DNA from: Candidatus Heimdallarchaeota archaeon
GTDB taxonomy: Archaea; Asgardarchaeota; Heimdallarchaeia; Heimdallarchaeales; Heimdallarchaeaceae
Direction: 5' to 3'
NCBI GenBank assembly: GCA_030668875.1
Contig: DAOVER010000004.1
Coordinates: forward strand, 1 to 32,000
DNA length: 32,000 bases
Shown: positions 13,555 to 28,846 of the stretch, piece by piece
Position numbering within the stretch: the first letter of the stretch is position 1
How the letters are laid out: each line of letters starts with the position of its first letter
Notes under the pieces: model-generated
The model's input: only the letters and a program-made list of their open reading frames with translations
The model's database searches: none
Told to the model about the DNA's origin: nothing
Made by a program: the position numbers and the translations under genes

Positions 13555-16167
13555 CTACAATTCAATTCTTGGATCTACCGCCACATAGATTATATCCGTC
13601 ACTAGATTCCCTAATAGAATCAGTATCGTCAGTATTGCTACCGTGCCAAGTATCATCGGGAAGTCGAGAAGACCGATAGCCGATACATATTTGAATCCTA
13701 GTCCTGGCCATGTGAAGAGTGTTTCTGTAATTGGAGCTCCAGCTAATGCTGTAGCTAGGAACAATCCTACGTAGGTAACAACTGGAATCAATGTGTTTCT
13801 AAAGGCATGTTTCCATGTAATGATTCTCTCAGAAATACCATTAGCTCTTGCTGCTAAAATATAGTCTTGTCTTAATACCTCTAACATAGTTGATCTTACT
13901 AATCTTGAATATATTGCCATGAAATTGAACAGCAAAGTAACTGTTGGAAGGACCATGTGAATGAGAGAGTCACCTAACCTTAACGTTACATTTCCCCACC
14001 ACGTTACCCATTCGCCGCCCCAGAATAAGTCCCAATTCACACCACTGAATACTGGTGTTGGTGCGGGTATTCTATGAGCTTTTGCTGCTGGGAACCACCC
14101 TAATCCATAACCACTAAAGATGTAGATTAGAACTAGACCAAAGACGAATATTGGCATTGATTGTCCCAATAATGCAAGAGAGCTTGACATTGAGTCAACC
14201 CATGTATTATGGTTCTTAGCTGCTAAAACTCCTAATGGAATGGAAACCATTAATGATAATACAAACGCTAATAATTGTAGTTTTAGTGTTTCCCAGACTA
14301 ATCCACCGATCATGTCATTTATTGCTTGACCTGATTGGAAACTGGTTCCCATGTCTCCATGTAAGAGATTATAGAACCACATAATGAACTGTACATAGAT
14401 TGGTTGATCTAGCCCTAATTTCCGCGTTAGATTTATTCGATCTTGTTCTGTTGTTCTTTGTTTACCAAGTAACAATAAGGCTACTGGGTCACCTAAACCA
14501 CTTACCATCACAAACGTTAGAACACAAACTGCAATGAATAGGGGAATAAGAGTCAATAAACGCCGGGTAATATATGTTGTTAAACGCAAATTAGCAACAT
14601 TTTTTATCCATTTGAATATGCTTGTTTCTCCCATTTTTCTAACTTTTTCAGAACTAATTGGTTTTTGCCAGTTAACAGGCAAAAATATTCCTGTTATAAG
14701 CACTATTATTCCGATTGTAAAAATATAGAAACCAGCACCTATGAAACCGTTTAATTCAATATTAAAGAAGGATGGAGAACTGTCATTCGGATTAAATGTT
14801 ATTGGTGTAACTGATAATGCTGTTTGACCATCAACTACTGCTACGTAGGTTTCTGCAGCAATATACAGTGATCGGTTCATCGCAATTATCGCCGCAATCA
14901 GTCCACTAAGCAATAATATTACTGCAACAATATCCGCAGCTAAACCTTTTGACTTAAAACCTCCACTTTGGAAGACTTGACCTAAGCCTGCAAATAACAA
15001 TGCAAACACTAGTAAGAACCAGATAACTGCAGATAGAATCACAATACTGGCAGGAACTTCTCCACTAATAAGTTGAGCATCTGCAGAATATCCTGTAGAA
15101 TTATAAGTAAGGGTTCTATATTGAATACTGAAACCCATAACTTGAACAAGATTCCCTCCAGTATCGTTGTTTATCCTTGGTCTTACTTGGAATATTAATA
15201 ATCCTGTGCTATCATCTACAATGTAGGCGTGCTCATTAACGATGTAAATGCTATTGGGTACTCCTTCTATATCATATGATGCTTCAAGTACAGGATCTGT
15301 TGGATCCTCTACAACAATAATCTGTAATCCTGTTTCTGCGTCAATAACATACGCAAATCCATTTTCAACAAATATGCCTTTACCATCACCAGCTAAATCA
15401 TAACTACCCATCAAAACTGGGTCAGTTACATCTGTTACATTTAGTATTGTTAAACCAAAACCTTCGCCTACAATGAAAGCATATCCTCCTTGTATGACGA
15501 AATCATTTGCAATACCATTTGTATTATAACTTCCTTCTAGTGTTGGATTTGTTATATTTGATATGTTCAATATTAATAGACCACTTGTCTCATCCAGAAT
15601 AAACGCATAATCCCCATGAATGAAAACATCTTGTGCTATACCGGTTGTTTCGTAACTTCCTTCTAGTGTTGGATTTGTTACATCTGTCACATTCAAAATT
15701 GTTAGTCCTGTATCGGCATCTGTAACGTATGCATAACCATCTTTTACGTATACTTCATTACCTCCTCCTGTGAGATTGTAATATCCTGCCAATGTTGGAC
15801 TTGATGCTATAGTAACATTCACAATCAATAATCCGGTAATTGAGTCTGTTACATAGGCGTACCCATCTTCAACATGTACTCCTTTGCTGTCTCCTGCAGT
15901 AGTATATGTCCCTGTCAGACTAGGGGAAGTTGGGTTGGATGCGTTAAAAACAAGCATTCCTGCATTCACATCAGCTACATAAATCATACCGTTTTTATAA
16001 AAAACATCATTTGCTCCGCCCGCAATACTGTAGTGAGACGAGGCAATTATTGGTTCTGGTTCTATAGTTGTTGAATCAAATGAAATATGATATAACGGTA
16101 CAAAGGCTGCCGTAAATAATAGGATAGCTCCGACAACTTTAAGTGAAATAGCTACACTTTTATCCAT
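13555..16167 (-). CDS. oppB: OppB/DppB permease fused to an N-terminal four-TM module containing a seven-bladed LVIVD beta-propeller
   Basis: C-terminal ~345 aa: YITRRLL, PGDP-like LGDP, LGLDQP..VQF, GDMGTS, MLEVLRQDYILAARANG, HAFRN, ETLFTWPGLG, DPRI; aa ~43-328 contain seven ~42-aa repeats. Confidence 0.92.
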   Translation of the reverse strand: MDKSVAISLKVVGAILLFTAAFVPLYHISFDSTTIEPEPIIASSHYSIAGGANDVFYKNGMIYVADVNAGMLVFNASNPTSPSLTGTYTTAGDSKGVHVEDGYAYVTDSITGLLIVNVTIASSPTLAGYYNLTGGGNEVYVKDGYAYVTDADTGLTILNVTDVTNPTLEGSYETTGIAQDVFIHGDYAFILDETSGLLILNISNITNPTLEGSYNTNGIANDFVIQGGYAFIVGEGFGLTILNVTDVTDPVLMGSYDLAGDGKGIFVENGFAYVIDAETGLQIIVVEDPTDPVLEASYDIEGVPNSIYIVNEHAYIVDDSTGLLIFQVRPRINNDTGGNLVQVMGFSIQYRTLTYNSTGYSADAQLISGEVPASIVILSAVIWFLLVFALLFAGLGQVFQSGGFKSKGLAADIVAVILLLSGLIAAIIAMNRSLYIAAETYVAVVDGQTALSVTPITFNPNDSSPSFFNIELNGFIGAGFYIFTIGIIVLITGIFLPVNWQKPISSEKVRKMGETSIFKWIKNVANLRLTTYITRRLLTLIPLFIAVCVLTFVMVSGLGDPVALLLLGKQRTTEQDRINLTRKLGLDQPIYVQFIMWFYNLLHGDMGTSFQSGQAINDMIGGLVWETLKLQLLAFVLSLMVSIPLGVLAAKNHNTWVDSMSSSLALLGQSMPIFVFGLVLIYIFSGYGLGWFPAAKAHRIPAPTPVFSGVNWDLFWGGEWVTWWGNVTLRLGDSLIHMVLPTVTLLFNFMAIYSRLVRSTMLEVLRQDYILAARANGISERIITWKHAFRNTLIPVVTYVGLFLATALAGAPITETLFTWPGLGFKYVSAIGLLDFPMILGTVAILTILILLGNLVTDIIYVAVDPRIEL
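15184..16040 (-). repeat. Seven LVIVD-type coding repeats (~126 bp period), including a 28-bp exact direct repeat at 15527-15554 and 15653-15680
   Basis: Repeat consensus G.a.dV.v.ggYAyv.d...GL.IlNvtd.tnP.L.GsY; TAACTTCCTTCTAGTGTTGGATTTGTTA occurs twice 126 bp apart. Confidence 0.9.
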
Positions 16168-17812: not shown

Positions 17813-18334
17813 TTAGTATTCATGGATTTTAGTTAACTTTAGTTCTTCTTTATTCTGTACCATCTCTATCTCAATTACCTTAGTTTTCTTTTCCTTAAGT
17901 AAGAGTTCTGATATCATGTAATAGTCAGAAGGAACAATTTGATCTTTCATTGAGTTAATGTCCTTTAAAGTAAACCATTTCAACTCTCCTTCGTCTGTTG
18001 GAGATAACTTTCCTTCTTCTGTACTCACTTGACACACAATGATTATAAAATGCCGAACATTGCTTTCTTTGTCTACTTCTATCAATCTTTCATTTAATGT
18101 TCCTTTAATTCCTTCCCACTTAACTTCTAATCCTGTCTCTTCAAATATTTCTCGTAAGATGGCTTCTTTTAGTTCTTCATTCTTTTCTAATTTACCACCA
18201 ACTAAAGCCCACTTCTTCTGATAGTCTCCTTTGCTGCGATTAATCAACAACCATTTTTCTCCCCATCTGATTCCTGCTACAACAATATTTAGGATATTGT
18301 TTTTCATCTTGATAAGGAGAGAAAATAACATCAA
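17813..18334 (-). CDS. NUDIX hydrolase (probable start ATG 18307)
   Basis: Nudix box GGKLEKNEELKEAILREIFEETGL; EGELKWF. Confidence 0.9.
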   Translation of the reverse strand: MMLFSLLIKMKNNILNIVVAGIRWGEKWLLINRSKGDYQKKWALVGGKLEKNEELKEAILREIFEETGLEVKWEGIKGTLNERLIEVDKESNVRHFIIIVCQVSTEEGKLSPTDEGELKWFTLKDINSMKDQIVPSDYYMISELLLKEKKTKVIEIEMVQNKEELKLTKIHEY

Positions 18335-18400: not shown

Positions 18401-18994
18401 ATGACTAACTTCATCCAACGAACATCTCAGACTATTCGCAGAAAGCTTGGCTATCCTGAAACATCGCTATTGGTTATGGGAAACAATCTTCCCGCGACAC
18501 GTAACCGTGTTTTGCTTATGCGCTCTAATACTTCTTTAAATGAATTTATCATTGACAGCTGTTTGAATGAGCTTCCATATACTGAAAAACTAAAGTTCAA
18601 ACCTAAACAATTTATCCCTTTCGAAGGTATTCTCTATCTTATAGATGCAACGAAAGAAGAAATGATTAAACATGAACGCAACTATTTCTGGGAAAAAATT
18701 ATTTGGGATGAGGAAGTAGAAGATCTTCCTATAGCTGTCTGCGCTTACAACACTGATTTACAAGGAGCTTTGACTAGAGGAGAATTAATAGAAAACATGT
18801 CTCTCATACGCTTAACAGATCGTATATGGAACCTTTTTGAGGTTCCAGATGTGGATTCATTAATTGAATCTCTAAAATGGATGAAAAAGGTAATCCATAT
18901 GGGTTACATAAAACCTTGGGTAGAAAAAGAAAAATTGTTAGAAAAAATACAACCTATTAAGGTTCAATTTCCTTCAGAAGAAGAAAATAATTAA
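18401..18994 (+). CDS. Arf/Sar-like small GTPase-fold protein with degenerate nucleotide-binding motifs
   Basis: C-terminal half aligns by eye to the Arf family (GILYLIDAT, DLPIAVCAYNTDLQGALTRGEL, LTDRIWNLFEV, SLIESLKWM); P-loop reads GNNLPATR, no DxxG, G4 reads YNTD. Confidence 0.7.
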   Translation: MTNFIQRTSQTIRRKLGYPETSLLVMGNNLPATRNRVLLMRSNTSLNEFIIDSCLNELPYTEKLKFKPKQFIPFEGILYLIDATKEEMIKHERNYFWEKIIWDEEVEDLPIAVCAYNTDLQGALTRGELIENMSLIRLTDRIWNLFEVPDVDSLIESLKWMKKVIHMGYIKPWVEKEKLLEKIQPIKVQFPSEEENN

Positions 18995-19013
18995 TAAATA
19001 AGAGGAATATACA

Positions 19014-20561
19014 ATGACAATTTCAATTGAAAATATAATGAAGGATGGTTATTCTGGTTATTCCGTTCGTTCTATATTAATGAATCCAGAATTCCGTGAT
19101 AGAGTTTCTAAAGACGTTACTGTTCGTGGTAATGAAGTTGGAAAAAAACTTGTTATGGATAAATTAGCTGTTGGTGGTAAAGTCCTAATTACAGGTCCAA
19201 CAGGTGAAGCCAAAACTCTTTTTGCAAGAGTATTGCTTGACCACATTGTTAGAGAAATTAACAATTACAAATACCATATCGGCGGTTGTCCATTCTTAGA
19301 AGATGCCGGATACATTGTAGATATCATCAATAACTTTCCATCAAATCCTTTTGCTGGAATTAGAGTTATGCAATCTCTATGTCCGTATTGTAGACAAAAA
19401 ATCGAAGGTGTTTTATCTGATGGAAACAGTTCTGTACAACTAGACAATACAAATAGCATACTTGAAATTTCTCCAAAAGAAGTAGTAAGTAGGTTAGGAA
19501 AACTCGATGCTACAAAAACACTAGTCAGAAGATCACAACTTGATCCAAGAAACGATCCTGAAAGTCTCTATATGCTACTTGCAGGTGTCGAAAACTTAGA
19601 AGAACTGTTTGGCAAAGAAACTCAAACTACTTATGCCGCCACCTCACACAAGGTAGGTGTTCTTTCCCACGGTATATTAGTTGTGAATGAAATTCAGAGG
19701 CTCCCATTAACACTATTAGAATCATTGATGGGTTTTCTTGAAGAACCAATGGGTATTAAATACAACATCCAAGGAGAACCAGTTTACATAGATGGTGCCG
19801 TAATCTTTACATCTAATGCACCACTGACAGTCTTTGGAGAAGAAAGTCAACCTATTATCAATCGTATTCCTGAAGTACTATGGCCCGCACGTTCTGTTGA
19901 AAGCAGAGAACAAATTATACGTGATATGTTTGAAGAACAGATTGTTCTATCACGAAAGAAAATCACAGCAAATCCTTCTATTATACAATTGCATGAATTG
20001 GAAAAAGGTTCTACAGATTTTGTTAGCAGACTTGCAGTAGATTTTCTTGCATATCTTGGAAATAATTCCTTACCTGCTAACCTAAAATCAAAGGGCATTC
20101 GTTCAGAAAGTCGTATGGCACGTACCGATTTCTATTCTGGTCTTGATGAAATCCATGATCCACAAAGAAATCCTCACATAGATTTACGTACTATGAACAA
20201 TATCATTGGTGAGACAGTGCTTTTACAAGCTAGAGAAACAGCTACGGATGCCAATGTTATAACTCTGGAAAAGCTACGAAGTACAATGAATGCTTACGAT
20301 ATACCTGTTTCGATGCTCAATGATGCTCTTCAACAGATAAAGATTCTTTTGAGAACATCAATAAAAGAATCAGAAGTTTCTATAAGTGTTCAAGATATCT
20401 CTGAAGATATTTCAAAGATGAAAGCACTAAGTGATAATGAACTAGCAGATCTGATTGTAAAGTTTGAAGGTTTAGATAAGTACAAAGACAAAATCCGAAC
20501 AACAATAATTGAGAGTCTTAGACCATCTTACGAGCAATTGTTAAGAGTAGATTACATCTAG
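19014..20561 (+). CDS. AAA+ ATPase, Mg-chelatase/MoxR-like clade
   Basis: Walker A GPTGEAKT (aa 61-68), GGCPF and CPYC, Walker B ILVVNE, FTSNAP sensor-1, PIINRI Arg finger. Confidence 0.85.
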   Translation: MTISIENIMKDGYSGYSVRSILMNPEFRDRVSKDVTVRGNEVGKKLVMDKLAVGGKVLITGPTGEAKTLFARVLLDHIVREINNYKYHIGGCPFLEDAGYIVDIINNFPSNPFAGIRVMQSLCPYCRQKIEGVLSDGNSSVQLDNTNSILEISPKEVVSRLGKLDATKTLVRRSQLDPRNDPESLYMLLAGVENLEELFGKETQTTYAATSHKVGVLSHGILVVNEIQRLPLTLLESLMGFLEEPMGIKYNIQGEPVYIDGAVIFTSNAPLTVFGEESQPIINRIPEVLWPARSVESREQIIRDMFEEQIVLSRKKITANPSIIQLHELEKGSTDFVSRLAVDFLAYLGNNSLPANLKSKGIRSESRMARTDFYSGLDEIHDPQRNPHIDLRTMNNIIGETVLLQARETATDANVITLEKLRSTMNAYDIPVSMLNDALQQIKILLRTSIKESEVSISVQDISEDISKMKALSDNELADLIVKFEGLDKYKDKIRTTIIESLRPSYEQLLRVDYI

Positions 20562-20574
20562 ACCGGCATAATTA

Positions 20575-21981
20575 GTGCCCAATGGAGATAATAGCATGCC
20601 CCATAGAATAAATTTCATAACAGCAGAAGAATTCACTGACCCTATTCAAGCATATGGAGACGTTGAATTCATCTTAGATTTTGAAGATGCTGCTCAAGTA
20701 CTTAGGTTATGGCGTAATCCACATTTAGGAAGAAGTTCTCGTGAAGGAGCAGTTCTTTCTCTTGCTGCAAAAAATGCTGTGGCAATGGAGAATATTGTTC
20801 AAAAGATAATGACAACTTATTTGACTGCTAACGAAGAAGAACGTTTACTAAACGAACTCAAAATCCTGCGGTTTATGGGTGATAGGATTCTCCCTGATGT
20901 ATTGGAAAGAGTAAATCGCAATGAGCTTCAAACTCTGGAAGAAATTCTTAAGTACATACAAGATCTTCTTCGTAATCTTAAATACGAAGGATCAGTTGAT
21001 TTAGACCAGCTGGCAGAAAAGCTCAATCAACTGCAAGAGATAATTGATATTGAAATAACAGATGCTTTTGGTAGAAAGAAACGTATATCTAGAGAAAGTG
21101 TTATGGATTTACTTGGAAAAATCCTCGGGCGTTTTCTTTTAAAACAAATATCCGTGGCACCAATCGACGAAGTGCAGAAGAGACCTAGGGGCACTATCAG
21201 ACTTAAAGAGACTTATAAGAGTGCAATTTTGAGTTCTCAAAATATACCGCCAACTTCTGTTAAACAAGAAGACATAATTCGGGTGAAAAAAGATAGACGA
21301 TCACTTGTGTATCTAATTGTGGACATGAGTCAATCTATGAAAAAAGCTGTTTTTGAAGGTAAAATGTCAAGGCTAGATGGGGCACTCTTAACTAGTTTAA
21401 GTTTATACTATTACTTCAAAATAATGAATCGTCGAAAAAGGAAAAGATTTGACATGTTTAAACTTGCCGTAGTTCCAGTTAGAAAGAACCCAACTGTCGT
21501 TGATGATGATAGTAAAATGGAAAACTACCTTCTAACAGCTGACGCAAAGGGTAAGACTTACATGGTTCAAGCTATTCAGACCGCCATTGAACACGCAAAA
21601 AAGCAACGTGTGGATAAGGATATTGATGTGTACTTCACAATAGTTACAGACGGTATGCCCAATGTTCCAACTTTTCCATATGATTATCGAAAAAATGAGG
21701 AGTTGCAGAAATACTTCTCTGAAATTCAAACCAAAACGAAACCAGAAACAATAGATTGTTTGATTCAACTCAATGGGATTTTCAAACATCTTAAAAATGA
21801 TAGAACAAGAAACTGGAACATCTCCTATTTCCTTATGGGGACTGAATCTCTACGTAATAAGGAGTTGTTCATTCACACAAAACAGATGTTGAAAGGTATA
21901 ACACGACCCATTCTTATCGATCCTGCTCAGATAAAGAAACTGGGAGAACAAATTTTAAGGGAGAGTATGATGCATGCTTAA
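20575..21981 (+). CDS. VWA domain protein with intact MIDAS (probable start ATG 20596)
   Basis: LIVDMSQSM (DxSxS), GKTYM, TIVTDG; preceded by a helical N-domain and GTIRLKETYKSA segment as in AAA-associated VWA proteins. Confidence 0.88.
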   Translation: MPNGDNSMPHRINFITAEEFTDPIQAYGDVEFILDFEDAAQVLRLWRNPHLGRSSREGAVLSLAAKNAVAMENIVQKIMTTYLTANEEERLLNELKILRFMGDRILPDVLERVNRNELQTLEEILKYIQDLLRNLKYEGSVDLDQLAEKLNQLQEIIDIEITDAFGRKKRISRESVMDLLGKILGRFLLKQISVAPIDEVQKRPRGTIRLKETYKSAILSSQNIPPTSVKQEDIIRVKKDRRSLVYLIVDMSQSMKKAVFEGKMSRLDGALLTSLSLYYYFKIMNRRKRKRFDMFKLAVVPVRKNPTVVDDDSKMENYLLTADAKGKTYMVQAIQTAIEHAKKQRVDKDIDVYFTIVTDGMPNVPTFPYDYRKNEELQKYFSEIQTKTKPETIDCLIQLNGIFKHLKNDRTRNWNISYFLMGTESLRNKELFIHTKQMLKGITRPILIDPAQIKKLGEQILRESMMHA

Positions 21982-23554
21982 AACCAAAACTGAATTTGAT
22001 GAGATAGTCCGAGTTTATAATTTAGCAAGAGAAGATTTCAAAGCTCTTGTAGGCGAAACTCCTGAAAACTATCGTGTGTTGCTTTTTGTTGACCCAGATC
22101 TACACGTTTCGGTAAATAGAGTTGTAGAAATAACTGGCACTCCACAAGCTATTTTGACAGCTGAACAAATAACTCATCTGAAGTCTGCTCGTATAAACGA
22201 TTTCTTGCCAGTTGGAAAAGAGACAGTCTATAATTCTCTCCCTACTTTGATTTATCTATCAGCCCCTTCATATGAACTTAACAAGGAACAGGAATTTACT
22301 CTTAGAGTAATGTTCATTCATGCTTTTGCTCATGCTTACATGAATGAAAAAACTGAGTCAAACTCAGCACGAACACTCTCCAGACTTTATCAGATAGACA
22401 CTGTTTTGAAGGAACTAATGACAAATAATGTTTTTCAGCTAAACAAAGAATCATCCGATGGGCATTCTTGGGCATGGCAATATTTCCAAGATTTAATTGG
22501 TGTAATTCGATTGTTCACCGAAGCTGGTGTAGAAGATTTTTACATTCCTCCTGAAATTGCTCGAAAATACACTCTATTCAATAATTTTTCAATTGAAGCT
22601 ATTAACTATTTGTCAGAAAGAGCAAAAGTATCAAGGAAAAAACATCTTCACGAACTAATTGACGAAGGTTTTGCACATTATGTTCAAGCTAAAGGTATTG
22701 AATATCTTATAAAATCAGGAGATTATGAGTTCAAGAAAAGTGATGAGGATAAAGAACCAAAATTACCTAATGAGTTGAAAGCATTTTTAGCTCCTCCCAT
22801 TGGTGAATTTAGTTTAGCTGTAATGAGAAGGCTTGAAACAAAAGTTGAAAATGAAAAAGAGCTATTCAGCAAACTTTTCAGTTATAAATCAGATATTGAT
22901 TTGTTGGAAGAATTTACTTGGGATGAAGTAAAGGATTTGCTTGCTGTAAATAAGAATCTGCATTCAGAAGGTGTTGTTGAGAAATGGCACTCTACACGAA
23001 GTAGGTGGACAGATATCTGGTCTGTTTATGCATATGGTTGGAAAATTGTTGAAGAATATACTAGAAAAGTATACAGAAAGAAGTTTTCAACTTTTGGTCA
23101 ACTACAGGATGAAAAACCAAGAATAGAATCCAAAGGCTATGTTAAGGTTGATCAAAGAAAAGTGTATGTTTTTGAAGTTAATGACTATGGAATAGGAATA
23201 GATCAACTCATTATACTTCATAATCACATGGCGCTGTATAGGGATGATTTTAAGACAATTCTTCCTGCATTTGCTGATGTAATTGTATTCAAGAAAATCG
23301 GTGGAATTCACGTTTCAACACTATTTGCTGTGCATAAAACAAAACACCAACCTCTATCTCCATATAATTTGCCGGTTGTAACCAGAGCTGTTCAAGTTAC
23401 TAAACGAAAAGATGCTTACAAATTTGATTTAGATGAAGAATCTGAAGATAAGATCGATGTGAGCAATGTTGATTATACCTATTTACGCAAATTGACCCAA
23501 CCTCAAAGAGGAGCAATTGCGTATTTAATAAAAGAAGGATTGTTTGAATTATGA
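21974..23554 (+). CDS. Hypothetical protein with zincin-like motifs (HAFAH, EGFAHY)
   Basis: 526 aa ORF overlapping both neighbours; FIHAFAHAY at aa 116-120 and DEGFAHY at aa 231. Confidence 0.8.
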   Translation: MLKTKTEFDEIVRVYNLAREDFKALVGETPENYRVLLFVDPDLHVSVNRVVEITGTPQAILTAEQITHLKSARINDFLPVGKETVYNSLPTLIYLSAPSYELNKEQEFTLRVMFIHAFAHAYMNEKTESNSARTLSRLYQIDTVLKELMTNNVFQLNKESSDGHSWAWQYFQDLIGVIRLFTEAGVEDFYIPPEIARKYTLFNNFSIEAINYLSERAKVSRKKHLHELIDEGFAHYVQAKGIEYLIKSGDYEFKKSDEDKEPKLPNELKAFLAPPIGEFSLAVMRRLETKVENEKELFSKLFSYKSDIDLLEEFTWDEVKDLLAVNKNLHSEGVVEKWHSTRSRWTDIWSVYAYGWKIVEEYTRKVYRKKFSTFGQLQDEKPRIESKGYVKVDQRKVYVFEVNDYGIGIDQLIILHNHMALYRDDFKTILPAFADVIVFKKIGGIHVSTLFAVHKTKHQPLSPYNLPVVTRAVQVTKRKDAYKFDLDEESEDKIDVSNVDYTYLRKLTQPQRGAIAYLIKEGLFEL

Positions 23555-24324
23555 GTATTGCGAATTTTCTTAATGGATTAGGTATGGGTAGAAAATTACA
23601 TAGTGAGAACCCACTTGACCGAGCTCACTTTGCTTTGTTTCAACAGATCAAGGGAAAGGCAAAAACAGTGAGAAAACTGCTTCCACTCCTAGAAGATTCG
23701 GAATGGAATGTGAGAAACTCAGCTTCTTCTTCTATACTATTTCTTGTTTCAAAATACCCAGAATCAAAGAAAGAGGTTCTATCTCACTTACATAGTTTTG
23801 TTGAAAAAAGTTCCTTATCTGTCAAACTATCAATATTAGAAGTATTGGGGAAACTAAAACATTATGATTCTAAACCCTATCTCATTAAAATGCTTGAAGA
23901 AAGTGGTTATGATCTGCAATATGCAACTATAAGAGCAATTGGATACTTAGATGATGTAGATGTTTTATATCCGCTCAAAAATGTTGTATATGCCCGTGAT
24001 TACATTACAAAACGAGCAGCTATTCTATCAGTAATTAGAATTACATCTTCTGTTAAAGAAGAAGAGATTATCAAGAAACTAACTCCACATATTCATCTGA
24101 TAATTGAATCCTATCTAGAATTGAACAAATTAGATGAAGTTGTAACCAAAATATTAGATTATGGTGATCCTGAATCATTCCCAGATATGAAAGGGTATAC
24201 TGAATCCGAAATAGTAAAACTAGAATCTCTTATTGAGACAAAAGATTATAGTGTAGAAATGTATCAAAATTTCGCTAAGTTAATTTATCCTACATACTTC
24301 CCTATAGCAGAAAATGTAAAGTAA
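23551..24324 (+). CDS. HEAT-repeat protein
   Basis: Repeated LLPLLEDSEWNVRNSA / LIKMLEESGYDLQYATIRAIG / LKNVVYARDYITKRAAI helical hairpins; ATGA overlap with the upstream gene. Confidence 0.82.
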   Translation: MSIANFLNGLGMGRKLHSENPLDRAHFALFQQIKGKAKTVRKLLPLLEDSEWNVRNSASSSILFLVSKYPESKKEVLSHLHSFVEKSSLSVKLSILEVLGKLKHYDSKPYLIKMLEESGYDLQYATIRAIGYLDDVDVLYPLKNVVYARDYITKRAAILSVIRITSSVKEEEIIKKLTPHIHLIIESYLELNKLDEVVTKILDYGDPESFPDMKGYTESEIVKLESLIETKDYSVEMYQNFAKLIYPTYFPIAENVK

Positions 24325-24332
24325 AGGTTGAA

Positions 24333-24593
24333 TTAAGCTTCAAACTTATTGATACAATATTCAACGAACTCTTTTTTTACTCCTTTTGTTACTTCTTCAT
24401 TCTTCCACTTTTCACGTATAAACTCTCTCACCTCTTCAGGGCAAAGATGATAACAAGTTGTAACAAGAGCGTATCCCATCATTCTGTTGCGAATCGTTTG
24501 AGAATCTAAGAGATTTAACGCTCTTCCAAGATGAGGATAGTTTTTTTGTAATTCTATTGAATTTCTTTTCTTTTCTTCTCCTATGGTGATCAT
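24333..24593 (-). CDS. Small hypothetical protein
   Basis: 86 aa ATG ORF with protein-like composition, GGGAGA SD-like site upstream, no overlap with long ORFs. Confidence 0.65.
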   Translation of the reverse strand: MITIGEEKKRNSIELQKNYPHLGRALNLLDSQTIRNRMMGYALVTTCYHLCPEEVREFIREKWKNEEVTKGVKKEFVEYCINKFEA

Positions 24594-24882: not shown

Positions 24883-25055
24883 AGAATCCGATTCCGTTTT
24901 ATGCTTCTTAAAAACAAGTATTACAAGAATGATACACTCTATCTTTTTTTAGCAATTTCCCATCCAGCAAAAACAAACGTATCTAGGTTTATTAAGTGAA
25001 AACTGTCTATCAGATAAGCATACTTTTTAACTTTAAGAAGATAGGAGAAATAACA

Positions 25056-27032
25056 ATGCCATTAGATATCGAGACACCTCTAAAACCAAGAGGAGACCAA
25101 CCAAAAGCTATTCAAAAGCTAGTTGGAGGGATAAAGAAAGGCAATCGATATCAGACTCTTTTGGGGGTTACTGGTTCAGGCAAAACCTATACTATGGCAG
25201 CTGTAATTGATAAAATTAAGAAACCTACTTTGATTATTGGCCCTAACAAAACTCTAGTGGCTCAGCTTTTTGGTGAGTTTAAAACTCTCTTTCCTTCTGC
25301 AAGCGTCAATTATTATGTTTCCTTTTATGACTATTATCAACCTGAAGCATATCTTCCTTCAAAGGATATGTATATTAAGAAGGATGTAGATATAAATGAG
25401 GAAATTGAGCGTTTACGACATACTGCTTTAGAAGCTCTTGCAACTCGCGATGATGTTATCGTATGTGCATCTGTTTCATGTATCTATGGAACAGGCCCTC
25501 CTGAATTGTACCGTTCCAATCAGATAAAATTGAATGTTGGTGATGCTTTTGATCGACAAAAATTAATGCTTGAACTTGTCAAGAATCAGTATCAACGAAA
25601 CGATGTTGCACTCACTCGTAAATGTTTTAGAGTTCGTGGAGATTCTATTGACATCTTCCCATTATATGGTGATTATGTTTATCGCATCGAATTCTTTGGA
25701 GATGAAATTGAGCGTTTGACTGCCCGTCACCCGGTATCCGCAGAGAAGATGAAAGAATATGGGCATTTGTCAATCTTTCCTGGGACACAATACCTTGCCA
25801 ATGACGCCTACTTTGAGAGAGCTCTGGAAGATATATCTGTAGAACTTGATATGCGATTAGCTGAATTGGAAAAAGAAAACAAAGTAATAGAAAGGCACCG
25901 ACTGAAACAACGAGCACTTTATGATTTAGAATTATTAAGAGAAACAGGATCCTGCCCAGGTATTGAAAATTACTCAAGACACTTTGATAGAAGGAAACCT
26001 GGAGAACAACCTTACACCCTTCTTGATCACTTTCCAGAAGACTTCCTGTTAATCGTTGATGAATCACATTTAACGATACCACAAATACGAGGAATGTATG
26101 GTGGTGATCATTCTAGAAAGAAGAATCTGATCGAATACGGTTTTAGACTTCCATCAGCACACGATAACAGACCTTTCAAATTTAATGAGTTCCGTAACTA
26201 CATGAATACAGTCATCTTTGCTAGTGCTACTCCTGCTCCCTTTGAATTCCAAGTATCAAATCAGGTTATTGAACAAATTATACGTCCTACTGGTTTGGTT
26301 GATCCCAAAATAGATTTAAGATCAACAAACGGACAAATTACCGATCTTCTAAGTGAGATTAATCAGAGAACGAGTAAGGGTGAAAGAGTTCTTGTAACAA
26401 CTTTGACGAAAAAAAGCGCTGAAATGCTTTCGGATTACCTTCTTGACATGAAAGTAAAATCTGTTTATCTTCATCATGAAGTGGTTACTTTAGAAAGGAT
26501 TTCCATCCTCCGTGATTTAAGATTAGGTAAGTATGATGTTGTAGTTGGTATTAATCTTTTAAGAGAAGGTTTGGATTTACCTGAAGTTGCTCTTGTTGCT
26601 ATTCTTGATGCAGATAAAGAAGGTTTTCTACGATCTAGGAGTTCATTAATACAACTAATGGGGCGTGCTAGTAGAAATGTACACGGTAGTGTTATTCTTT
26701 ACGCAGATAATTTGACTAATTCAATGAAAACAGCTATTGCAGAAAATAATCGTAGAAGAAGATTACAACAAGATTACAATAAACAACATGGTATTAAGCC
26801 AACAACAATCAGAAAAGAAGTTAAATCCATTGTAGAACACCTTATGCAAATTACACCCAAAGAAGAGGAAAAAATTGAAGTACCCAAGGGTCTTACGAAG
26901 GAAGATCTTCTTTATGTTATTGAAGATTTATCTAGCCAAATGGCTGAAGCAGCAGGAATATTAGATTTTGAAAAAGCTGCTCTTTATCGCGATAAAATTC
27001 AAGAACTTGAGAAAATGGTGGAAAGCAGATGA
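25056..27032 (+). CDS. uvrB: Excinuclease ABC subunit B (ORF track start 24996; ATG 25056 preferred)
   Basis: GVTGSGKT, SFYDYYQPEAY beta-hairpin, GIENYSRH, DESH, GFRLPSA.DNRP, EQIIRPTG, GINLLREGLD, C-terminal UVR coil; AGGAG at 25043-25047. Confidence 0.97.
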   Translation: MPLDIETPLKPRGDQPKAIQKLVGGIKKGNRYQTLLGVTGSGKTYTMAAVIDKIKKPTLIIGPNKTLVAQLFGEFKTLFPSASVNYYVSFYDYYQPEAYLPSKDMYIKKDVDINEEIERLRHTALEALATRDDVIVCASVSCIYGTGPPELYRSNQIKLNVGDAFDRQKLMLELVKNQYQRNDVALTRKCFRVRGDSIDIFPLYGDYVYRIEFFGDEIERLTARHPVSAEKMKEYGHLSIFPGTQYLANDAYFERALEDISVELDMRLAELEKENKVIERHRLKQRALYDLELLRETGSCPGIENYSRHFDRRKPGEQPYTLLDHFPEDFLLIVDESHLTIPQIRGMYGGDHSRKKNLIEYGFRLPSAHDNRPFKFNEFRNYMNTVIFASATPAPFEFQVSNQVIEQIIRPTGLVDPKIDLRSTNGQITDLLSEINQRTSKGERVLVTTLTKKSAEMLSDYLLDMKVKSVYLHHEVVTLERISILRDLRLGKYDVVVGINLLREGLDLPEVALVAILDADKEGFLRSRSSLIQLMGRASRNVHGSVILYADNLTNSMKTAIAENNRRRRLQQDYNKQHGIKPTTIRKEVKSIVEHLMQITPKEEEKIEVPKGLTKEDLLYVIEDLSSQMAEAAGILDFEKAALYRDKIQELEKMVESR

Positions 27033-28846
27033 GCCTTTTATCAGATTTAGAATCTTTACCTTTAGAACCCGGAGTTTATCTAATTAAGGATAAAGATGAA
27101 AAAATTGTATATGTCGGTAAAGCTAAAAACATTCGAAACCGAGTAAAACAACATTTTCAAACTACTCATGACCCAAAAGAGGATAAACTACAGGAGTTAG
27201 CTAGTAGAGTAGATTGGGTGATTACAAGAAATGAATCAGAGGCTCTAATTTTAGAAAAGAAATTAGTGAAACAGCTTTCACCTAGATTAAACAGCCAACT
27301 GAAAGATGACAAATCACATCTTCTAATTCGTATATCGATGGAAGATGAATACCCTCAGTTTTATATTGCTAGAGAAACTGATTCTAGAATTCCTAAAAGT
27401 GTATACTTTGGTCCCTTTACCAATGATACGATGCTTAGACAAACAGCAAAACTTGTTCTGAAACTATTTCCAATATGTGATTGTGGGAAGTGTAAAGAAC
27501 AAACTAGAAAAAGTAAAGCTCCTCTACGTTGCATGAGAGAACGATTGGGCAGGTGCTTAGCTCCATGTTTAAATGACGTTTCTCCTGAAGAATATGGAAA
27601 AACAGTCAAAAACGTTATCGCTTTTCTAAAGGGCGACGTTGCTGATTTACTTGATAATCTTGGAAGGGAAATGTGGACAGCTTCTGAAGGATCAAATTTC
27701 GAAAAAGCTGCAAACCTGCGTGACCTTATTCAAGCTGTTTATACAATTTTGAACATACAAAAAGATCTACACTCAAAGAAAAGGAATGTTGACTTATTGG
27801 CTTATAGAGAAGAGGATAGTATCCTTTCTTTATGTAAGATAGAAATTCGAGAATACAGAATTCACAACATTAAAGCTTTCATTTATGACGAGAAAGAAGA
27901 GATGTTAAATCTGGGTGAAGTGTTAACCTACATCTATGGTTTAGAGAAACCGAGATATAAGATTCAAGCTAGTAATGACTTCATTTCTAGGTTCAAGAAT
28001 AATATTGGTTTCCAAATTTTAAGTATTAGAGGAGATACAGCTAAACAACTAAACGATGTTACAGAGAAGAATGCATCTAAAGAATTACAAAAGTATATGC
28101 GAGAATTAAAACACCATGAGGACGCGGAAACCGTTCTAGAGGAAGTGAAAACCATTCTTTGTTTAGATAAAATGCCGGAGATAATACATGGTTTTGATAT
28201 ATCGACATTGAAAGGGCAACATTCAGTAGGTTCTTGTGTAGTTTTTGCTAATGGGAAACCAAGGAAAGACCTATACAGACGTTTTCGTATTAGAAAAGAA
28301 TATTCAGATCCCAATGATTATGAAATGATGAAGGAAGTAATTTCCCGTAGATACAAATCCGACACTCTCAAAAAGGATCCTTTACCGAATCTGCTGATAA
28401 TTGATGGTGGGAAGGGACAACTGAATATTGCTGTAAAAGTTTTAAAGACCTTGCAATTGAACGTTCCAGCAATAAGCATCGCTAAGAAAAACGAGGAAAT
28501 ATTTGTAGAAAATCAAAGCGAACCAATCAAACTTGAACAAAAGTCAGCTGTTCTAAGGTTAATTCAATATGTCAGAGATGAGTCTCACAGGTTTGCAATA
28601 AATTACCACAAGAAGCTAAGAGAAAAGTCTGTAAAGCGGACAATATTCGATGATATCAAGGGAATCGGTAAGAGTAAAGTCCAGGCTCTATTCCACGAAT
28701 ACAAAAACATACAAGAAATTGCTAATTCTGATATATCTGAAATGAAAAAAGTTTTAGCTGTTAATGAAAAAATAGCTACGCAAGTTATAGATTTAGCTAA
28801 AAAAAATTTGAATAAGAACTACATTCGAGAAAATTCGAATAAATAA
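27029..28846 (+). CDS. uvrC: Excinuclease ABC subunit C
   Basis: GVY...YVGKAKN GIY-YIG domain, Cys-rich CLAPC, UVR coil, GFDIS, LLIIDGGKGQ, RDESHRFA, HhH IKGIG. Confidence 0.96.
   Translation: MSLLSDLESLPLEPGVYLIKDKDEKIVYVGKAKNIRNRVKQHFQTTHDPKEDKLQELASRVDWVITRNESEALILEKKLVKQLSPRLNSQLKDDKSHLLIRISMEDEYPQFYIARETDSRIPKSVYFGPFTNDTMLRQTAKLVLKLFPICDCGKCKEQTRKSKAPLRCMRERLGRCLAPCLNDVSPEEYGKTVKNVIAFLKGDVADLLDNLGREMWTASEGSNFEKAANLRDLIQAVYTILNIQKDLHSKKRNVDLLAYREEDSILSLCKIEIREYRIHNIKAFIYDEKEEMLNLGEVLTYIYGLEKPRYKIQASNDFISRFKNNIGFQILSIRGDTAKQLNDVTEKNASKELQKYMRELKHHEDAETVLEEVKTILCLDKMPEIIHGFDISTLKGQHSVGSCVVFANGKPRKDLYRRFRIRKEYSDPNDYEMMKEVISRRYKSDTLKKDPLPNLLIIDGGKGQLNIAVKVLKTLQLNVPAISIAKKNEEIFVENQSEPIKLEQKSAVLRLIQYVRDESHRFAINYHKKLREKSVKRTIFDDIKGIGKSKVQALFHEYKNIQEIANSDISEMKKVLAVNEKIATQVIDLAKKNLNKNYIRENSNK

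Follow-up and report, generated by a model that had tools for sequence, protein, structure and literature searches.

A Heimdallarchaeia operon that joins an AAA+ ATPase and a VWA/MIDAS protein to SpoVR-like, Arf-like and HEAT-repeat proteins

Five tightly packed genes of a Heimdallarchaeia archaeon raise the question of what their products do together. The genes, g1 to g5, are read from the plus strand at positions 18401–24324 of a 32,000-nt stretch (the window) of contig DAOVER010000004.1, which belongs to a metagenome-assembled genome (MAG) from marine sediment. [quoted passage not shown] An earlier note, made from the letters of the window alone, had called them a candidate undescribed system. 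This stands as far as annotation goes, all five genes being ‘hypothetical’ and unnamed in public records and a literature search having found no paper that describes the operon, but a counterpart does exist by fold and gene order, namely the bacterial PrkA–YeaH–SpoVR module. We would place the operon among the AAA+/VWA-MIDAS remodelling modules as a novel variant, whose plan comes closest to that of PrkA–YeaH–SpoVR.

The reading that we prefer is a joint one, and we hold it with slightly better than even confidence. It says that the operon is vertically inherited, specific to Heimdallarchaeia and laid out in a manner compatible with co-transcription of all five genes, and that it encodes a cytosolic, ATP-driven protein-remodelling or signalling machine on the plan of AAA+/VWA-MIDAS pairs, specifically that of PrkA/YeaG, YeaH and SpoVR/YcgB.

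Conservation of the operon

The operon is conserved as a block. Profiles of all five proteins were used to scan 52 species-level loci, and the genes stand in the canonical order g1–g5 in 35 of them. In four loci g1 is displaced but lies less than 6 kb away, in four more it is not detected in the stretch covered, and nine loci are cut by contig ends. The genes g3, g4 and g5, together with g2 where the contig reaches it, are always contiguous across the 52 loci, as far as the contigs extend. With dozens of species sharing one gene order, the arrangement lies far outside what chance would give. The genes that flank the operon in the window recur only inside its own family and change between families, so it is the block itself, not its neighbourhood, that is conserved.

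The distribution of the operon is narrow and regular. The ATPase gene g2 is detected in 50 of 300 Asgard genomes and is confined to five families of one class. It is present in all four families of the window’s own order (26 of 27, 1 of 1, 11 of 11 and 3 of 3 genomes) and in 8 of the 11 genomes of one family belonging to another order; the search found it in none of 21 genomes of a sister family of the same class and in none of the other 24 Asgard families sampled. The SpoVR-like gene g4 is detected in 37 of 40 relatives. The closed genomes of Candidatus Heimdallarchaeum endolithica and Candidatus H. aukensis belong to the family. Pairwise dN/dS ranges from 0.02 to 0.14 across the five genes and from 0.04 to 0.14 for g1.

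The SpoVR-like protein g4

No Pfam family matches g4, and its sequence family is tiny, with 20 matches among 1.84 billion representatives. Its assignment comes from its predicted fold. The AlphaFold2 (AF2) model of g4 has a mean predicted local distance difference test score (pLDDT) of 81 and a predicted template modelling score (pTM) of 0.83. Among the clusters of the AlphaFold Database it matches SpoVR models with E-values of 3.6e-8 to 1e-6 and a probability of 1.0 over query residues 1–468, and in the ESM Atlas 383 of its residues align, with TM-scores of 0.54/0.59, to a cluster in which PF04293 (SpoVR) reaches 100% and PF24755 (SpoVR_C) 82%; both comparisons set one predicted model against another, there being no SpoVR structure in the PDB. 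A Foldseek search of the g4 model against the PDB returns nothing at E ≤ 0.001. In a VIA-align comparison of the model with 48,161 PDB chains, residues 2–348 align with gluzincin peptidases at Z values of 8–9, moderate for a helical domain, with 170–190 residues aligned. Most of the 50 matches listed are M1, M32, M3, M4, M9 and related peptidases, those of the thermolysin type included, and all those listed with Z ≥ 7 are peptidases save TAF2 (TFIID) and a few uncharacterised proteins.

At the positions where the peptidase motifs HExxH and NEGxA are expected, the window’s g4 carries HAFAH, with Ala in place of the catalytic Glu, and EGFAHY, keeping two His and a Glu; the equivalent stretches of Escherichia coli YcgB are AHACYGH and NEGWATFWH. 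Elsewhere in the order, other families show QLLAM, YALAK, VGFG and NGFA at the His and Glu positions, and a conserved HExxH with a third-ligand Glu was not found in the g4 family. Invariant across the orthologues are NN, WxWQYFQD, DFYxPP and ILHNH. HAFAH was considered as a recently inactivated active site, and this was rejected, the motif being missing from whole families. As HAFAH is not conserved within the family, the term ‘dead enzyme’ fits the fold of g4 and not a recently lost site. The ‘zincin-like pseudo-enzyme’ of the earlier note is thus right about a gluzincin fold that has no conserved metal site, wrong if taken to mean a site lost recently, and can be made more specific: judged by its model, g4 is predicted to fold like SpoVR, its N-domain being a gluzincin in which the metal ligands vary between orthologues.

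The resemblance lies below what the SpoVR family profile detects. The PF04293 hidden Markov model (HMM) finds nothing in the genome, and none of 36 g4 orthologues matches it at E ≤ 1; the same HMM detects SpoVR in the E. coli, Bacillus subtilis, Thermus and Haloferax controls.

The VWA/MIDAS protein g3

Pfam matches g3 weakly to VWA_2, and 16 orthologues, five of which also match VWA_CoxE, all share its MIDAS residues (D250-x-S252-x-S254, T328 and D359) without exception. Among Swiss-Prot folds, the AF2 model (pLDDT 74) is closest to Rv0959/Mb0984 (E 3e-12, residues 36–463), followed by the UPF0229 proteins YhbH/YeaH (E 3e-9 to 2e-7, residues 167–458). In the ESM Atlas it reaches a TM-score of 0.57 to clusters that combine Mb0984_helical, Rv0959_3rd and VWA_2. 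The solved structures that it matches, the MIDAS domain of Rea1 (the best), p44/Ssl1, Rpn10 and NorD, are generic VWA domains; the archaeal Sec23/24-like ArnAB stands at rank 21. As with g4, the family HMM of the bacterial counterpart, DUF444 (PF04285), is silent: no g3 member matches it even at E ≤ 1, and it finds nothing in the genome.

The AAA+ ATPase g2

The ATPase g2 carries a Walker A motif (GPTGEAKT), a Walker B motif (VVNE), a sensor-1 (TSN) and an arginine finger (INR). All Pfam matches in 16 members are weak: Sigma54_activat in 15 (above threshold but partial), AAA_5 in 13 (below the gathering score) and Mg_chelatase in 8. The nearest neighbours of two g2 orthologues in a protein language model (0.95–0.97) all belong to AAA_5, Mg_chelatase, Sigma54 or AAA_3 families; they are 470–545 residues long and many are archaeal. 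With its NEIQR, equivalent to the DEINR-type Walker B context of the MoxR class, its TSN sensor-1 and its NR arginine finger, g2 appears by sequence features to belong to the MoxR/chelatase/NtrC group as a divergent member of the MoxR/ChlI class. Elsewhere in the same genome, on contigs C13, C95, C93 and C33, there are six or more genes for canonical AAA_5 (MoxR-like) ATPases of 300–380 residues, so g2 represents an additional, much more divergent class of paralogue.

The divergence is itself conserved. In a family set of 99 full-length members, which reaches down to 35% identity and consists of Asgard records without a name, the Asp of the canonical Walker B is replaced by Asn, giving Asn-Glu, in 99 of 99. 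In 95 of 99 Walker A reads GPTGEAK[TS], with Ala for the canonical Gly; of the other four, three have a canonical GxxGxGKS and are among the most divergent members, and one has GVTSEGKS. Unlike canonical MoxR proteins, whose AAA_3 and AAA_5 HMMs match g2 below threshold only, g2 also has a Cys-bearing insertion of roughly 100 residues between Walker A and Walker B. Three cysteines of this insertion (CPF ... CPYC; window positions 19270–19400, about residues 88–126 of g2) are all present in 94 of 99 members and are replaced by SS[ASV] in the other 5. This all-or-none pattern suggests a single metal site, and the triad looks like one dispensable site of this kind.

Sequence searches against the PDB are without result for the three core proteins: phmmer finds no match for g2, g3 or g4, and the g2 family profile finds none either, the solved PrkA 9xip included. 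The PrkA domains AAA_PrkA (PF08298) and PF06798 match neither g2 nor its 16 orthologues, and a search of the genome with PF08298 yields only an unrelated sub-threshold match on another contig.

The Arf-like protein g1 and the HEAT-repeat protein g5

The Pfam Arf family (PF00025) matches residues 74–163 of g1, its C-terminal half only, with an E-value of 4.7e-7 and 29.9 bits against a cut-off of 22.3, and it is found in 11 of 14 g1 orthologues. A profile of 29 g1 sequences returns 100 matches in the PDB; the 60 that are listed are all Arf, Arl or Asgard ArfR proteins (best E-value 3.8e-11, and 6.6e-10 for Asgard ArfR 8oul). The profile aligns with the C-terminal two thirds of Arf, Arl and ArfR (PDB 8OUK/8OUL). 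Unlike these proteins, the 29 aligned g1 sequences conserve neither the P-loop GxxxxGK[ST] nor the DxxG of switch II nor NKxD, and their G5 region is shortened. The G1 region reads GNNLPATR, or GEKSETRD in another order, and the G4 region YNTD, YNAE, PETT or PNTS. With the P-loop Lys, DxxG and NKxD missing, g1 is taken to be Arf-derived and without canonical nucleotide binding. It has neither Gly2 nor an amphipathic membrane anchor, and it is always encoded with the AAA+/VWA operon and not as a standalone gene. Its sequence describes an Arf fold predicted to be incapable of binding nucleotide in the canonical way, yet one that is under purifying selection.

The last protein, g5, matches HEAT_2 (9.2e-10), and its gene always directly follows g4 in related loci. 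Complex prediction for g4, g5 and g1, with g1 as the partner, scores 0.72, against 0.70 in a control in which g4 is replaced, and thus speaks neither in favour of binding nor against it. All five domain assignments of the earlier note are recovered, four of them by Pfam (Arf, Sigma54_activat/AAA_5, VWA_2 and HEAT_2) and the zincin of g4 by fold.

Comparison with the PrkA–YeaH–SpoVR module

In most bacteria yeaG (prkA), yeaH and ycgB (spoVR) form one operon; the genes are co-fit in six species and act as one pathway (bioRxiv 10.1101/072470). The module also occurs in some archaea. The archaeal operon has the same three-gene order, with an AAA+ ATPase followed by a VWA/MIDAS protein and a SpoVR-fold protein of about 500 residues, the last two being of similar size to their bacterial counterparts. 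The match covers both domains of the SpoVR models in g4 and the part of g3 from residue 167 onward for YhbH/YeaH, and g2, g3 and g4 are adjacent or overlapping in every locus where the contig allows. It is the SpoVR fold of g4 and the resemblance of g3 to Rv0959 and YhbH/YeaH, met in the same gene order, that make the core of the operon parallel to the bacterial module. The operon differs from it by two additional conserved genes, for the Arf-like pseudo-GTPase and the HEAT protein, and by metal-site residues of g4 that are not conserved.

Several results weigh against so close a kinship. Neither Pfam nor profile–profile comparison links the sequences of g2, g3 or g4 to bacterial PrkA, DUF444 or SpoVR, and hhalign against single E. 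coli YcgB, YeaH and YeaG sequences and small PrkA, DUF444 and SpoVR alignments gives probabilities below 10% (7% for g4 and SpoVR). The best local matches of the cognate pairs fall at sensible places, i.e. the P-loop, the MIDAS region and the EGFA/NEGWA helix, and are not significant; the search with YeaG for a diverse PrkA alignment returned only sequences 78–100% identical to E. coli YeaG, mostly 85–88%. PrkA, an AAA+ ATPase, ends in a kinase-like C-terminal domain (PMC13001217). With 515 residues against 644, g2 lacks this domain and, its profile also missing 9xip, seems to belong to a different ATPase class. Furthermore, the best fold match of g3, and the one that covers its whole length, is Rv0959 and not YeaH. 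Rv0959 and Rv0958 are found in actinobacteria, with look-alikes in other bacteria and archaea, and Rv0958 is a Mg-chelatase-like AAA+ protein, which agrees with the AAA_5/Mg_chelatase neighbours of g2; Rv0959 differs from g3 in having 672 residues, with an extra 200 at the N-terminus. The papers mentioning Rv0958 or Rv0959 that a literature search found do not characterise the pair, and we know of no SpoVR-like, HEAT or Arf-like partner for it. Finally, the invariant Walker B Asn and the Walker A Ala of g2 may mean weak hydrolysis or none. Going by the sequences, the likeness to the bacterial module could be a convergent assembly from common parts.

The canonical bacterial-type set is also met within the class. 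One MAG (G290; 80% complete, 6% contamination), from a family in which g2 is found in 0 of 2 genomes, has prkA, DUF444 and spoVR genes in that order on contig C578, and it holds two such canonical sets on short contigs (C578; C418 and C713). One of its SpoVR genes codes for 766 residues with an insertion of about 250; the Atlas clusters contain SpoVR proteins with LAGLIDADG insertions. These sets could be contamination, the result of gene transfer or a sign of complementary distribution.

Alternative explanations

MoxR/VWA pairs with an established role serve as metallochaperones (PMC9976466, PMC13036017), and a dedicated machine of the NorQD, CbbQO, CoxDE or chelatase kind would read the same parts differently: g2 and g3 would insert or exchange a metal in a specific client, either g4 or an enzyme encoded elsewhere, and g5 and g1 would hold it. 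The class of g2, the full MIDAS of g3, its VWA_CoxE matches, the NorD VWA domain among its PDB fold matches and the two His and Glu that the window’s g4 keeps at zincin positions all agree with this. Several families that keep the whole operon have lost the putative metal ligands of g4, however, which means that the function shared by all of them cannot be to load g4 with metal. The operon, whose flanks vary between families, has no conserved metalloenzyme gene beside it, nor is any other client gene linked to it. For such tasks, moreover, the genome has its canonical MoxR genes. We regard a metallochaperone as unlikely. The lineage brings up the quite different idea of an ancestor or analogue of eukaryotic membrane-traffic machinery (Arf with a coat- or adaptin-like solenoid and a Sec23/24-like VWA trunk) or of ribosome-assembly machinery (midasin/Rea1-like, with a Rix1-like HEAT protein). 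It draws on the genuine Arf-family membership of g1, whose nearest solved relatives include Asgard ArfR, on a weak Adaptin_N match of g5 (0.0039) and on the Rea1 and ArnAB matches of g3. Against this, g1 has none of the nucleotide-binding motifs or membrane anchors described above, none of the five proteins has a transmembrane or lipid-binding part, and the VWA domains of Rea1, p44, Rpn10 and Ku80 score alike, as expected of a generic fold. Moreover, the operon was found neither in any of the 21 sister-family genomes nor in the other Asgard classes sampled, which is unexpected for the ancestor of a universal machine. Such an origin is highly improbable, and the link to membrane-coat ancestry on which the earlier note had speculated finds nothing in its favour here beyond generic fold resemblances.

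It is scarcely credible that the operon serves as an antiviral or conflict system like those of the vWA-MoxR type, which are NTP-dependent ternary systems. An AAA+ ATPase, a vWA protein and adaptor-like proteins are indeed the layout of vWA-MoxR conflict systems (PMC7159879), and one neighbour set of g2 in the protein language model is bpMoxR. The operon, though, is single-copy, syntenic and vertically inherited across the class, with strong purifying selection acting on it; it lacks an effector domain, and the window shows no mobile-element context. A defence system was rejected after a PADLOC search as well, which gave noise only, at the level of a P-loop (TRIP13, 1.2e-4) and of HEAT repeats (WGR_XIII, 4e-5).

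Proposed mechanism

For the preferred reading, a remodelling or signalling machine on the PrkA–YeaH–SpoVR plan, the better-studied AAA+/VWA machines suggest how it might work. NorQ–NorD, CbbQ–CbbO, RavA–ViaA, CoxD–CoxE, the chelatase I/D pair and Rea1 share with g2 and g3 a complete MIDAS of the form DxSxS-T-D and the adjacency of the AAA+ gene to the VWA gene, although the operon differs from them by three further conserved subunits. By this analogy the remodelling machine that the earlier note had proposed would be the natural reading of the pair. In work on MoxR/VWA machines, a single VWA protein attaches to the hexamer by way of a finger and the C-terminus, and an acidic residue on the target is what the MIDAS grips; the MIDAS of NorD is needed for the target and not for binding the ATPase (PMC9976466, PMC13036017). 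On the model of NorQ–NorD, CbbQ–CbbO and Rea1, a g2 hexamer would engage one g3 via the VWA domain or a linker, an acidic client residue, for which the acidic low-confidence loop of g4 (residues 485–497) is one candidate source, would complete the coordination of the g3 MIDAS ion, and ATP binding or slow hydrolysis would pull or twist the client. The remaining proteins, g4, g5 and g1, encoded by genes in translational coupling or close linkage, would by the same analogy form a fixed adaptor or regulated-substrate part and not act as enzymes. The output, the weakest link in this chain, is probably adaptation to stress or nutrient state and not housekeeping, if yeaG–yeaH–ycgB is a guide.

A bolder version of the machine, which we think rather improbable, has no counterpart elsewhere. 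In it, the nucleotide-free Arf-derived protein and the HEAT solenoid would be permanent subunits of a MIDAS/AAA+ remodeller, and the SpoVR-like pseudo-zincin would either be the substrate under regulation or sense the state of the cell. If it were true, the partnership of Arf and solenoid seen in eukaryotic coats and cofactors would have pre-existed, in nucleotide-independent form, in an ATP-driven complex of the archaea closest to eukaryotes.

Among bacterial gene triads of unexplained biochemistry, PrkA–YeaH–SpoVR is one of the most widespread, and a relative by shape only, whose motor differs and which has two additional subunits, would offer an independent view of the VWA–SpoVR pair. The operon would also illustrate the reuse of an Arf fold as a nucleotide-blind subunit, in a group, Heimdallarchaeia, that serves the reconstruction of the archaeal ancestor of eukaryotes. 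The small size, solubility and strong conservation of all five proteins put co-expression and cryo-EM within reach, and the invariant Walker B Asn of g2 is a clean mutational handle.

Gene layout and flanking genes

The features of the locus are listed in the table. The six-frame list of open reading frames (ORFs) reproduces exactly the five co-oriented genes, the gaps of 19 and 13 nt, the overlaps of 8 and 4 nt and the opposite-strand flanks that the earlier note had described, and one start needs revision: 11 of 16 g3 orthologues begin at MPHRI, so translation of g3 probably begins at the ATG at 20596, leaving 34 nt between g2 and g3. The start of g5 overlaps the stop of g4 as ATGA. Read by resemblance to consensus, a TATA-box-like TTTAAA lies in the 66-nt spacer between g1 and the divergent NUDIX gene, and a GAGG stands 8 nt 5′ of the g2 ATG. 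None of the five proteins has a transmembrane helix, again as the earlier note had it, the maximum Kyte–Doolittle value over 19-residue windows being 1.41. The 21 sequencing runs listed with this stretch are marine-sediment and cold-seep DNA runs, with no RNA run among them.

Table. Predicted features of the locus, in window coordinates
Feature	Position	Strand	Length	Predicted identity or remark
NUDIX gene	17813–18334	-		Upstream flank
TATA-box-like TTTAAA	18364–18369	+		32 nt before the g1 ATG; consensus resemblance, read from sequence
g1	18401–18994	+	197 aa	Arf-family-derived pseudo-GTPase
g2	19014–20561	+	515 aa	Divergent MoxR/ChlI-class AAA+ ATPase
g3	20575–21981 (GTG start)	+	468 aa	Helical N-region and VWA domain with complete MIDAS
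g4	21974–23554	+	526 aa	SpoVR-like; gluzincin-fold N-domain (about 2–348) and C-terminal beta domain
g5	23551–24324	+	257 aa	HEAT-repeat protein
ORF	24333–24593	-	86 aa	Downstream flank; no Pfam family
uvrB and uvrC, bacterial-type	24996–28846	+		Downstream, beyond the 86-aa ORF

Of the relatives examined, the closest alone (L019) keeps the 86-aa ORF, with 48% identity. The uvrB and uvrC genes are neighbours of the operon also in the family’s other genomes (L019, L024–L026).

Variant loci and minor observations

Two distant versions of the locus, recognised by the g4 profile with E-values of 5e-56 and 2e-23, keep the order VWA–g4–HEAT with a longer HEAT protein, and in one of the two an AAA+ gene is divergently adjacent. 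Near the most distant version lies a gene for a canonical small GTPase matching Pfam Arf, Ras and Roc (L033:12167–12748, minus strand); no g1-like protein was detected there, and a TnpB/Cas12f-like gene stands at the edge of the same locus. Another distant version (VWA–g4–HEAT), from a ‘Promethearchaeota’ MAG, has a gelsolin-domain protein about 5 kb away (L031:14413–15003, plus strand).

In two lineages a gene for an FKBP-type peptidyl-prolyl isomerase lies upstream of g2 (L013:4356–4994, plus strand, and L014:11444–12193, minus strand; FKBP_C E-values of 3e-14 and 5e-7, respectively). Both loci are without g1 directly upstream, and in the first a ParB_N protein is encoded between the FKBP-type gene and g2. 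An FKBP-type gene in the position of g1 may hint at a folding or chaperone context. In a further locus (L015), the ORF 5′ of g2 was considered as a g1 orthologue and rejected at 12% identity.

Elsewhere in the window, at 13555–16167 on the minus strand, an 870-aa protein combines an Opp-type permease (BPD_transp_1) with six LVIVD beta-propeller repeats, and its gene is followed by oppC-like and ATPase genes.

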